Positions 53,345-56,308 of a DNA stretch of 64,000 bases are shown in pieces (within the stretch, counting starts at the first letter, position 1; each line of letters starts with the position of its first letter). A model generated the notes under the pieces. That model worked only from the letters and a program-made list of their open reading frames with translations. It ran no database searches and was not told the origin of the DNA. Origin of the DNA: Octopus vulgaris (taxonomy: Eukaryota); assembly GCA_951406725.2 (NCBI GenBank), contig OX597832.1, positions 66,898,001 through 66,962,000 on the forward strand, given 5' to 3'. The translations under genes were made by a program, and so were the position numbers.

Positions 53345-53500
53345 CTACATTATTTAAAATATTTACATTTGACGTATATTTGTCCTCATTTTATTTGTGG
53401 TTAACTCAACGTTTCGGCTGATATACCCTCCAGCCTTCATCAGGTGTCTTGGGGAAATTTCGAAGCTGGGTTATCATTCCTAAGGTATTTTTCGATATTA
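53345..53500 (-). mobile_element. 3' module of the putative tRNA-(TAA)n-hammerhead element
   Basis: Directly follows the (TAA)n tract on the minus strand and contains the HHR at 53404-53447. Confidence 0.65.
53404..53447 (-). ncRNA. Minimal type I hammerhead ribozyme motif
   Basis: acac-CTGATGA-A-ggctg gagggtatat cagcc-GAAA-cg-TT-gagt: canonical CUGAUGA/GAAA/UH core, 5-bp stem II, palindromic stem III (aacgtt) and one stem I mismatch. Confidence 0.85.
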
Positions 53501-53780
53501 TTATTTTATTATTATTATTATTATTATTATTATTATTATTATTATTATTATTATTATTATTATTATTTTTATTATTATTATCATCATCATCATCATCATC
53601 ATCATCATCATCATCATCATCATCATCATTATTATTATTATTATTATTATTATTATTATTATTAATATTATTATTATTATTATTATTATTATTAATATTA
53701 TTATTATTATTATTATTATTATTATTATTATTATTATTATTATTATTATTATTATTATTATTATTATTATTATTATTATT
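53497..53780. repeat. (TTA)n/(TCA)n microsatellite at the 3' end of the Dong element
   Basis: Directly visible. Confidence 0.97.
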
Positions 53781-55980
53781 CAGTAGTTTTATTTTTATAG
53801 CGTGCTTTCACTTCACTACCGAGCGCAGCTCTGTGTGCCTTAGGTATATGCTGTGATTTGTTGTGATACTCTGATGGTTATTGTATGGAAAGTGTTCTGC
53901 GTAGGATGTGTGCAGTGCCCAGTATTGCAATTTTCTGTATGTTAAATGTGTTTGTAAGTCCTGGTGTTTTTGTTATGTATTTGTCTGAATATTTTTTTAT
54001 CGTGCCTAATGCACCTACTATGATAGGAATTGTTTCCGTTTTTAGATTCCATATTCCGGTTACCTTTATTTCCAGGTCTTTGTATTTTGAGAGTTTCTCC
54101 ATTTCTTTTAGAGAAACGTTGTCATCTGCCGGTATTGATACATCTATTAGAAAGCATTTTTTTTCTTCATGATCTCTGACAACTATATCTGGTCTGTTGG
54201 CCTTAATTTCTCTATCTGTGTGTATTGGCATATCCCAGAGTATGGTTGCTTTCTCGTTTTCTGTGACCTTTTCTGGTGTGTGCCTATACCATCTTTTTTC
54301 TGTTGTTATTCCATAATGTTGGCATAGCTTCCAATGTATGAAGGTTTCAACTCTGTCATGTCTGTGAATATATTCCTTCTTAGCCAGGACTGGGCAGCTA
54401 GAGATAATATGATTTATTGTTTCTTGTCCATCTCCACATATTCTGCAGTTACTGGTTAAATTTCTTTTCATTACATGTTTTTGGTAATTTCTGGTGGGGA
54501 GGCTTTGGTCTTGTGCTGCAATTAAAAATCCCTCTGTCTCTGCTTTGAGTCCTGAGCTTCTCAACCATTGCTGGTATTTTTCTTTGTCTATTTCTTTTGC
54601 ATTTAGTTTAATCCAGTATTTGCCATGTAGGGGGTTTTCTTGCCATCGTTTTATCATGGTTCGATGCTGTTCTATTTTTAGTTTGGATTTCATTTGTTTT
54701 ATAGCTTTTGTTGTTTCTTCATCTTCTTCTTCTTGTTCTTCATATTTATTAGGTGGTATGATTTCTTGTTTGTATTTGTCAGCTTCCTTAAATACTGAGA
54801 ACAGTTTTTTGTTTTGCTCGTATTTTGCCGTTACTTGTATCAGTTTTCCTTCCTTCTGAAGTAGATATTTTTGCAGTCCTATGGTGGTTATTTTATAGTA
54901 GTTTTCCAGCTGTATAAGGCCTCTACCACCTTCTATACGTTGTATATATAGCCTTTCTATGTCAGATTTTGGGTGATGCATCCTAGATCCTGTCATTATT
55001 TTTCTTGTTTTCCTATCTATTTTGGTCAGCTCATTTAGTGTCCAGTTTAGGATATTGTAGCTGTAACTTATAACTGGGACAGCTAAAGTGTTAATACATA
55101 TTATCTTGTTTTTAGCATTGAGCTCTCTTTTTAGTATTGATCTAACTCGTGTATACTATTCTTTTTTACTTTTCTCTTTCATTTGTGTGTGTTGTGTCTT
55201 ATCTAGTTCATGGATTCCTAAGTATTTGTAACTTTGGTTTGGTCTAATTCTTTTATTTCATTGGTTTTATTTAGTGTGATGTTGCTACTCTTAACTAGTT
55301 TTCCTCTTTTCATGGTTACTTTGGGGCATTTTTCTAATCCAAATTTCATATCTATTTCTTTGGTAAATCCATGAACCGTCTTTAATAGTGTTTCCAGCAG
55401 TTTGTCATTTGCAGCGTATAGTTTTAGGTCATCCATATATAAAAGGTGGCTGATCGTTTTGCCGTAACATTTATATCCACATCCAGTTCTATTTAGCATA
55501 TCAGATAGAGGTGACAGTGCCAAGCAGAAAAGGAGTGGAGAGAGCGTGTCTCCCTGGAATAATCCTCTTCTAATGGGGATGTCTTTGGTTTTCATGAGTC
55601 CCTCTTTTGTTTGGAGGTGTAGGACTGTTTGCCATTTATTCATAGAGTGCTCAATGAATTTTATAATTGCTGGTGCTACTTTTTTAATGGCTAGTGTTTC
55701 GAGGGTCCATCTGTGGGGGATGCGTTGAAACGCCTTTTTGTAATCGATCCAGGCAATACTGAGGCCGTTCTTCTTTCTGTGGCTGTCTTCAGTTACGGCT
55801 TTATTAATCATTAGCTGATCTTGCTTCAGCTTTTCTTTTATCTCAGGTAAATCTTTTTCTGTGATGGTATATTTGCGGAGTATTTTTGTTTTCTTTTTGT
55901 TGCTCAGTAGCGTTGATTTTCTACTGATTTCATTAAGAATCGACAGATCTTTTCTCATTTTTTGTATTTTGTTTTGGATG
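53781..55980 (-). mobile_element. R4/Dong-clade non-LTR retrotransposon (RT plus restriction-like endonuclease), 5'-truncated pseudogene
   Basis: RT motifs IDYKKAF, GLFQGDTLSPLLF and HLLYMDDLKLY; GGRGL; CCHC knuckle CRIC...HIISSC; RLE motifs RHD, RPDIV, IDVSIP and EKLSKY. Flanked on both sides by (TAA)n, with a frameshift and stop near 55150-55240. Confidence 0.93.
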
Positions 55981-56288
55981 TTATTTATTATTATTATTAT
56001 TATTATTATTATTATTATTATTATTATTATTATTATTATTATTATTATTATTATTATTATTATTATTATTTACTGCCTGGAATCGAACTCTGAATCTTGG
56101 GGTTCGTAGCCCATCCTATTAACCATCTTTTCTCATTTTTTGTATTTTGTTTTGGATGTTATTTATTATTATTATTATTAATATTATTATTATTATTATT
56201 ATTATTATTATTATTATTATTATTATTATTATTTACTGCCTGGAATCGAACTCGGAATCTTGGGGTTCGTAGCCCACGCTCTTAACCA
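55947..56288. repeat. Tandem duplication of the Dong 5' junction plus (TTA)n plus SINE head
   Basis: The unit atcttttctc...ggatgtt-(tta)n-tactgcctggaatcgaactc...taacc starts at 55947 and again at 56125. Confidence 0.9.
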
Positions 56289-56308
56289 CTACGCCATATG
56301 CCCGTGGG
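56234..56308 (-). mobile_element. tRNA-derived (Arg-ACG-like) Pol III SINE head
   Basis: gggcatatggcgtagtggttaagagcgtgggctACGaaccccaagattccgagttcgattccaggcagt: A box TGGCGTAGTGG, B box GAGTTCGATTCC. The acceptor stem does not pair, so this is not a tRNA gene. Confidence 0.85.

Follow-up and report, generated by a model that had tools for sequence, protein, structure and literature searches.

A 64,000-nucleotide window of the 2.8-Gb Octopus vulgaris genome (contig OX597832.1, positions 66,898,001 to 66,962,000) contains, on the minus strand of its 53345-56308 region, a repeat made up of a tRNA-like head, a (TAA)n tract, and a module bearing a hammerhead ribozyme motif, split by an inserted Dong element (Table 1). 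Our analysis indicates that this locus is almost certainly a solo pseudo-long terminal repeat (pLTR) of an autonomous Penelope/Poseidon element, a Penelope-like element (PLE) with a reverse transcriptase (RT) and a GIY-YIG endonuclease in one open reading frame (ORF). A polymerase III promoter of tRNA origin has probably been captured by the pLTR of this element, and the element would shed solo pLTRs.

Several of these parts were noticed in a preliminary description made from the window. The minimal hammerhead module (CUGAUGA/GAAA/UU) is present and co-oriented with the head, and the unit is split by Dong, with a junction duplication of about 164 nucleotides (nt), as that description had it. 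The head does have A and B boxes and runs into (TAA)n, but its start lies at 56309 rather than 56308 and the label tRNA-Arg(ACG) is over-specific. The 5′ end of the head is the putative transcription start; the 4 nt upstream of it match the PLE spacer (see below) too. In the window copy, the final 6 nt of the head are missing, as is the 30-nt tail. Private changes common to both copies of the duplication indicate that it arose at this locus. The Dong insert, with an RT matching PF00078 and a C-terminus resembling R2 proteins, is 94-97% identical to copies at seven other loci; it is a later insertion into the TAA tract and lies outside the Penelope unit.

Table 1. Features of the solo pLTR locus and its insert (window coordinates)
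Feature	Position	Strand	Details
tRNA-derived pLTR head	56235..56309	-	A box 56296-56286, B box 56251-56242
pLTR (TAA)n tract, portion upstream of Dong	56163..56233	-	
Local direct duplication, ~164 nt	55947..56288	-	Head 22-75, TAA, and first ~38 nt of Dong
5′-truncated Dong/R4-like LINE (long interspersed element)	53781..55984	-	RT, zinc finger, restriction-like endonuclease; frame broken
(TAA)n/(TGA)n tract downstream of Dong	53496..53780	-	
Hammerhead module	53346..53495	-	End of 5′ untranslated region and first ~130 nt of Penelope/Poseidon ORF; ATG 53477-53475
Minimal type I hammerhead	53403..53448	-	Stem I 53448-53444 / 53407-53403, core from 53443

The Head and the Hammerhead Module

The A box occupies head positions 14-24 and the B box positions 59-68, with 34 nt between them; as in short interspersed elements (SINEs), the boxes are thus 30-35 nt apart and begin 10-15 nt from the 5′ end. 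Both fit the polymerase III pattern, the anticodon and acceptor stems are decayed, and a short GC palindrome lies at positions 1-10. The head is tRNA-like yet not a tRNA gene: ARAGORN finds no tRNA gene in it, and its Rfam tRNA score of 12.9 bits is below the cut-off of 29. Among 35 tRNA sequences of the genome, a set with tRNA-Arg(ACG) outside it, the Arg and Ala tRNAs are nearest by a small margin (49-51 of 77-79 columns identical), and the anticodon position is T in 54 of 59 aligned heads and G, giving ACG, in just 3.

The hammerhead has a 5-bp stem II, a loopless 2-bp palindromic stem III, and a GUU triplet, with a predicted cut after 53408. It carries the traits by which minimal hammerheads are recognized (an extra nucleotide separating position 9 from position 10.1, the pair G10.1-C11.1, and palindromic 15.2-16.2; PMC4209133); the Rfam hammerhead models gave no match in the window or in the module. 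A T>A change in stem I of the window copy, common to 10 of 99 modules, breaks one pair and places a stop in frame. The modules have a median identity of 94% to their majority sequence, and neutral decay from a single ancestor accounts for the differences among the hammerhead copies. Hammerheads are also reported from giant squid (PMC6962438).

One Repeated Unit

The module is not a chance arrangement: genome-wide, a 34-nt word spanning the hammerhead core is matched exactly 1,690 times and its reversed control never; a 27-nt word from the tail has 4,141 exact matches (control, none). Scaled by the share of sampled copies that hold the exact word (6 of 100 for the hammerhead word, 18 of 49 for the tail word), these counts correspond very roughly to 28,000 arms and about 11,000 tailed arms, and a translated search returned 37,209 candidate copies.

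Head and module form one element. When 29 further loci were selected by their head, 25 proved to have a co-oriented module downstream; the remaining four have insertions or end early, with no alternative body in common. Conversely, a co-oriented head is present in 22 of 30 hammerhead-word loci (the first 30 exact matches on contig 1), 20 times on the anchor arm and twice on the inverted arm; the other eight are cut inside the module (five), hold Dong-like inserts (two), or show the tract only (one). The preliminary description had joined the two parts into one unit and had staked this on their adjacency at other loci, where they do adjoin.

Dong occupies the same TAA tract at other loci too (L011, L018, L080, and L198), and its reported target is TAA microsatellites (PMC3812793). 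Further inserts in the tract (L006, L014, L032, L041, L042, L049, L053, and L060) include a second Dong-like family (about 67% identity), an element ending in a CT-rich word, and other SINEs.

The Autonomous Partner

On their upstream side, some heads continue into the closing part of a GIY-YIG ORF. A word spanning stop codon, spacer, and head has 382 exact matches (control, none). When 30 of these junction loci, two pairs of which are duplicates, were fetched, the head followed in 30 and the module in 26; of 20 loci selected by the RT thumb, 16 also have a head after the ORF stop, at the distance of a 23-nt spacer. In walks toward the 5′ end, the reading frame of the module proves continuous with the ORF, which comprises 838 codons from the module ATG, the predicted hammerhead cut falling at nt 70 and the tail ending at nt 163. 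The repeat unit is 2,661 nt long and consists of head, (TAA)n, hammerhead and ORF start, the RT and GIY-YIG ORF, and the 23-nt spacer. At 20 loci fetched from the 40 best matches to the ORF N-terminus, the module precedes in all 20; the head is reached in four, none extends past it, and one locus begins at head +5. Four copies (L300-L303) extend from the head to ORF nt ~390-510, and two of them (L301 and L303) are joined directly to position 1 of a second head, a structure that suggests template jumping by the RT or another region of internal priming.

The 838-aa ORF is the majority sequence of the copies; in one natural copy, 569 codons are still open. Eighty-five ORF pieces have a mean identity of 92% to the majority, and the family looks inactive or nearly so. 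The ORF has 2,989 homologues; its RVT_1 match (E 2.7e-6) is below the cut-off, Pfam GIY-YIG has no match on the 569-aa copy, and no relative of the RT was found in the PDB. Read by eye, the sequence contains a GIY-YIG-like core with two Cys and two His (CCHH). The CX2-5CxxC linker between RT and endonuclease, present in a Neptune-type ORF of the same genome, is absent, and absence of this linker is given as a criterion for Penelope/Poseidon (PMC8557442). The element is placed with Penelope/Poseidon because of its CCHH core without this linker, and by the sequence features tested it is a PLE of that group. An 847-aa homologue from another source is 55% identical and has its N-terminus encoded by the same hammerhead; proteins 55-68% identical are close relatives of the ORF. 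Scans of metagenomes and metagenome-assembled genomes (MAGs) returned just 30-47% relatives, and viral contigs none.

Two other candidate partners were rejected. Neptune-type PLEs, the sole yield of a Pfam GIY-YIG hunt, have no similarity to the module, and an octopus gene model matching the module peptide (XP_029651560.2) starts in a solo copy. This model (P0002, Octopus sinensis) is a cysteine-rich receptor-like protein, one isoform of which has the module peptide as its first ~36 residues; the isoform is possibly an exonised solo pLTR or a model artefact. Contigs from GTDB MAGs (L271-L279) contain PLE ORFs, three of them with a hammerhead behind the ORF, and are likely to be eukaryotic contamination of the bins. 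The Neptune-type PLEs of the octopus (L121:606-4287, L122, and L097/L102) form a young family with many intact 781-aa ORFs and an upstream frame of 360-380 aa; their 3′ region consists of tandem repeats, and no canonical hammerhead was seen. The repeats contain CCAAT-, CRE-, and TATA-like words, which we take as a polymerase II-looking contrast to the tRNA-headed family.

Insertion Marks and Solo Units

The copies bear the marks of Penelope insertion. Two module arms point apart at 42 of 100 loci (two loci with two pairs each counted once), and the module 3′ ends fall in two clusters, at 140-159 and 180-183. A tail of about 30 nt is found on exactly one arm in 40 of these 42 loci, on neither in 2, and on both in none (P 2e-10); inverted 5′ copies together with a 30-40 nt tail at one end are described as a PLE signature (PMC8557442). 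The six bases past the tail match the continuation of the ORF (47-82% per position in 60 tails, against a background of about 31%), after which the match returns to background. This AT-rich match would be consistent with priming at a nick in AT-rich DNA, which has been reported for Anolis Poseidon (PMC11167929). There is no sign of a target site duplication (TSD): the longest word shared by the flanks is 4.9, against 4.5 in mismatched pairs, in a set of 17 non-inverted copies that includes one duplicate and three ORF-linked copies. The simple repeat of the unit is internal and not a 3′ tail. In one case, a broken RT-encoding LINE (L181:1700-4600) separates the inverted arms of a single Penelope insertion.

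The 64 solo units have one consensus in common with the 52 that are ORF-linked, with a median identity of 94.8% in each set; they differ mainly at CpG sites, and no diagnostic subfamily change separates them. At equal overall divergence, the ORF-linked heads are more CpG-decayed than the solo heads, which may reflect heavier methylation of ORF-bearing copies. Tested as SINEs, the short copies prove neither to be a separate family sharing just a 3′ tail nor to have a TSD and a simple-repeat 3′ tail.

The suggestion that the unit is mobilized by a PLE RT rather than a LINE is borne out by the inverted arms, the one-arm tail, and the shared pLTR. A comparison of the module with the pLTRs of autonomous PLEs, which the preliminary description had proposed, shows that the module is the start of the Penelope/Poseidon ORF, preceded by the same head. 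Its picture of a separately built non-autonomous SINE had to be given up: the entire unit, with its head, is part of the autonomous element.

Elsewhere in the window, another SINE-like repeat is located at 56835-57025, about 500 nt upstream of the head, and a direct duplication of about 290 bp (33980-34430, minus strand), upstream of a LINE-ORF1-like frame, contains a CUGAAGA...GAAAC-like word without a good stem II; the latter is probably not a ribozyme.

5′ Ends and Polymerase III

A survey of 5′ ends took in 105 arms at 68 loci, which had been selected by the module only (the window locus and one duplicate left out). The head is entered by 55 arms, of which 17 end between +13 and +81, 32 end between -10 and +12 (four of these, scored at -10, are head fold-backs that mimic the spacer), and 6 continue. 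Of the 38 arms that reach head +12, 32 thus have their end at -10 to +12, where the rate of truncation within the head would predict 4.4. The pile-up is situated about 13 nt before the A box, the distance from start to A box that is given for SINEs (PMC8969392). To judge from these ends and the boxes, it is quite likely that polymerase III starts at the head.

The 2,661-nt unit contains no sense-strand run of four Ts (T4), where shuffles expect 2.6-4.7 (P 0.006-0.08, by null), so polymerase III could read the entire ORF. Single copies contain 43 scattered T4 runs in 95,643 nt (85 copies), none of them in more than 3 copies. By comparison, two 2,343-nt Neptune ORFs of the same genome have nine each, and 15 other PLE ORF stretches have a pooled density of 4.5 per kb, with at least one in every stretch. 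As a sign of polymerase III read-through the deficit is suggestive only, and transcription across the whole ORF by polymerase III, which sequence composition would permit, is put forward tentatively.

A Proposed Mechanism and Its Alternatives

We propose that transcripts begin at the head, 13 nt upstream of its A box, and that the element's own RT primes at tail sites 120-165 nt into the ORF. Priming by RT at sites in the ORF start has been reported in vitro for PAc of Anolis (PMC11167929). Priming at the first pLTR, followed by copying back to the head alone, would yield a SINE-like solo pLTR; priming at the second pLTR would yield ORF-bearing copies, mostly 5′-truncated; and second-strand events would produce the inverted arm. 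The combination of a polymerase III promoter in the head with internal priming would account for short SINE-like copies in their tens of thousands. Cleavage by the hammerhead would fall 70 nt into the ORF and would probably require a dimer or help from protein; for PAc, cleavage is reported to depend on protein, to be dispensable for insertion in vitro, and not to have been seen in vivo (PMC11167929). Dong would later have used the TAA tract as a normal target. In its boldest form, the proposal is of an autonomous coding retrotransposon transcribed by polymerase III from end to end, starting at a captured tRNA promoter, with its 2.5-kb ORF purged of terminators and each of its transcripts made a source of SINEs by internal priming, a LINE and its SINE in one; this is conceivable, with the balance somewhat against it.

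Several observations weigh against the proposal. No intact head-ORF-head copy was found, and all four extended 5′ copies stop at ORF nt ~390-510. In the pile-up, 19 of the 32 ends lie at +5 to +12, beside the GC palindrome that could stall RT. The T4 deficit is modest and sets a consensus against single copies, and T-poor ORFs are likewise low in T4 (Dong, 1 in 1,211 nt and 3 in 2,202 nt; L271, 1 in 1,764 nt). The hammerhead fold is 1.4 kcal/mol above the minimum free energy (MFE) structure of the monomer, and the designed dimer is not the MFE structure of the cofold. In three RNA runs carrying a related label, mapped together with one contig set to one ORF-linked copy, the reads on the head, the module, and the ORF end are equal on both strands and show no end pile-ups; they decide neither start nor cleavage. 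Finally, a polymerase III RNA that has no cap and is cleaved within its own ORF could be translated only by some unexplained route.

Alternatively, in line with the idea of the preliminary description and with the partner now known, the solo pLTRs could be a self-propagating SINE, with polymerase III transcripts of their own as the main templates and PLE protein supplied in trans. The preponderance of solo over ORF-linked copies (1,690 and 4,141 module words against 382 junction words; 6 of 105 arms reaching spacer or ORF) would agree with this, as would the fact that solo units retain the hammerhead, the A and B boxes, and in many cases the tail, and the lower CpG decay of their heads. It is nonetheless unlikely, since the 64 solo and 52 linked units show no diagnostic subfamily change other than at sites that are mostly CpG and have the same median divergence, and the minimal template reported for Anolis Poseidon extends past the tail into the ORF (PMC11167929), a part that solo units are without.

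Less probable again is transcription by polymerase II from an internal TATA-less promoter, in which case the head would be left over from a SINE that had inserted into the pLTR, and the pile-up would mark a polymerase II start or an RT stall coinciding with the head start. Against this reading, the A and B boxes have stayed intact, with their spacing, in a cloverleaf otherwise decayed; the pile-up is at the usual polymerase III distance, 13 nt ahead of the A box; 13 ends fall at -10 to +4; the tandem junctions are at position 1; and no other body is common behind the head in 29 loci. Polymerase II would allow translation without a special route, and the promoter of Drosophila Penelope is described as internal and LINE-like (PMC2377424); the palindrome at head 1-10 with its 19 neighbouring ends and the modest T4 deficit are also on this side.

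Independent insertion of head and module at a shared (TAA)n target can be dismissed, for although the tract does attract others (Dong, RTE-like), the linkage counts refute it, with order and orientation fixed (25/29 and 22/30), joint inversion in the 5′ arms, and a fixed 23-nt spacer.

A Penelope element with a tRNA-derived promoter in its pLTR would be of some consequence. According to the current view, SINEs ride on LINEs and autonomous retroelements require polymerase II, the latter as argued for the partners of TRIMp3 elements (PMC10886601). This family places a putative promoter of tRNA type within a Penelope element that is autonomous, and ties SINE-like copies, in their tens of thousands, to a Penelope RT. 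A polymerase III promoter in a protein-coding retrotransposon would be unusual and, if true, this would be the first SINE-like family linked to a Penelope RT. It would also provide a direct route to the birth of a SINE, by promoter capture and internal priming, and bears on two questions about PLEs, namely which polymerase makes their RNA and what purpose is served by a ribozyme that cuts inside the ORF. The element, moreover, seeds TAA tracts, the landing sites of Dong. In the literature searched, with Repbase, Dfam, supplements, and most subscription papers outside its scope, neither a tRNA-headed PLE nor a PLE-driven SINE was found.

Comparison with Known Systems

The closest likeness is to the Penelope/Poseidon elements of Anolis (PAc) and Drosophila virilis (Penelope). 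These have an RT with a C-terminal GIY-YIG endonuclease in one ORF, a CCHH core without the zinc-finger linker, a pLTR overlapping the ORF start and containing the hammerhead, inverted 5′ arms with a 30-40 nt tail at one end, an AT-rich target, and no TSD (PMC11167929, PMC8557442, and PMC4209133). In Anolis Poseidon, the hammerhead likewise lies over the ORF start and the tail between two RT start sites (PMC11167929). The octopus pLTR differs in opening with an A/B-box head and (TAA)n, most of its copies end at the head, and the unit has no T4; the promoter tested for Penelope is LINE-like and TATA-less (PMC2377424). At three other PLE loci with a downstream hammerhead, no B box was present behind the ORF.

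TRIMp3 elements (Cassandra, Helenus, and Ajax) also have a polymerase III promoter derived from a small RNA in a terminal repeat, proposed to come from insertion of a SINE into the repeat; their autonomous partners are argued to require polymerase II and to lack the repeat (PMC10886601). TRIMp3 elements are, however, non-autonomous LTR (long terminal repeat) elements, whereas the octopus element that bears the head is autonomous and is a PLE. The octopus unit also departs from the TRIMp3 pattern of a primer-binding site, polypurine tract, and 5-bp TSD: it lacks a TSD, bears PLE insertion marks, and has a coding partner with the same repeat.

The inserted Dong element belongs to a clade that we take to be R4. 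It resembles known Dong in its RT, its R2-like C-terminus, and a 3′ end abutting (TAA)n, and differs from a mobilizing partner in being a passenger here. Ohshima and Okada reportedly described, in 1994, the octopus tRNA SINEs OK, OR1, and OR2, with tRNA-derived heads. OR1 is a CORE-SINE (PMC4824008), unlike the octopus PLE unit.

Finally, the Sm-alpha and Sj-alpha repeats of schistosomes resemble the octopus unit in having a polymerase III promoter followed by a hammerhead. They are described as tandem and SINE-like, with no RT partner named in the accessible part of the review (PMC6765202); the octopus unit, in contrast, is dispersed, bears the marks of PLE insertion, and forms part of an RT-encoding element, and thus suggests a candidate type of partner for hammerhead SINEs such as Sm-alpha.

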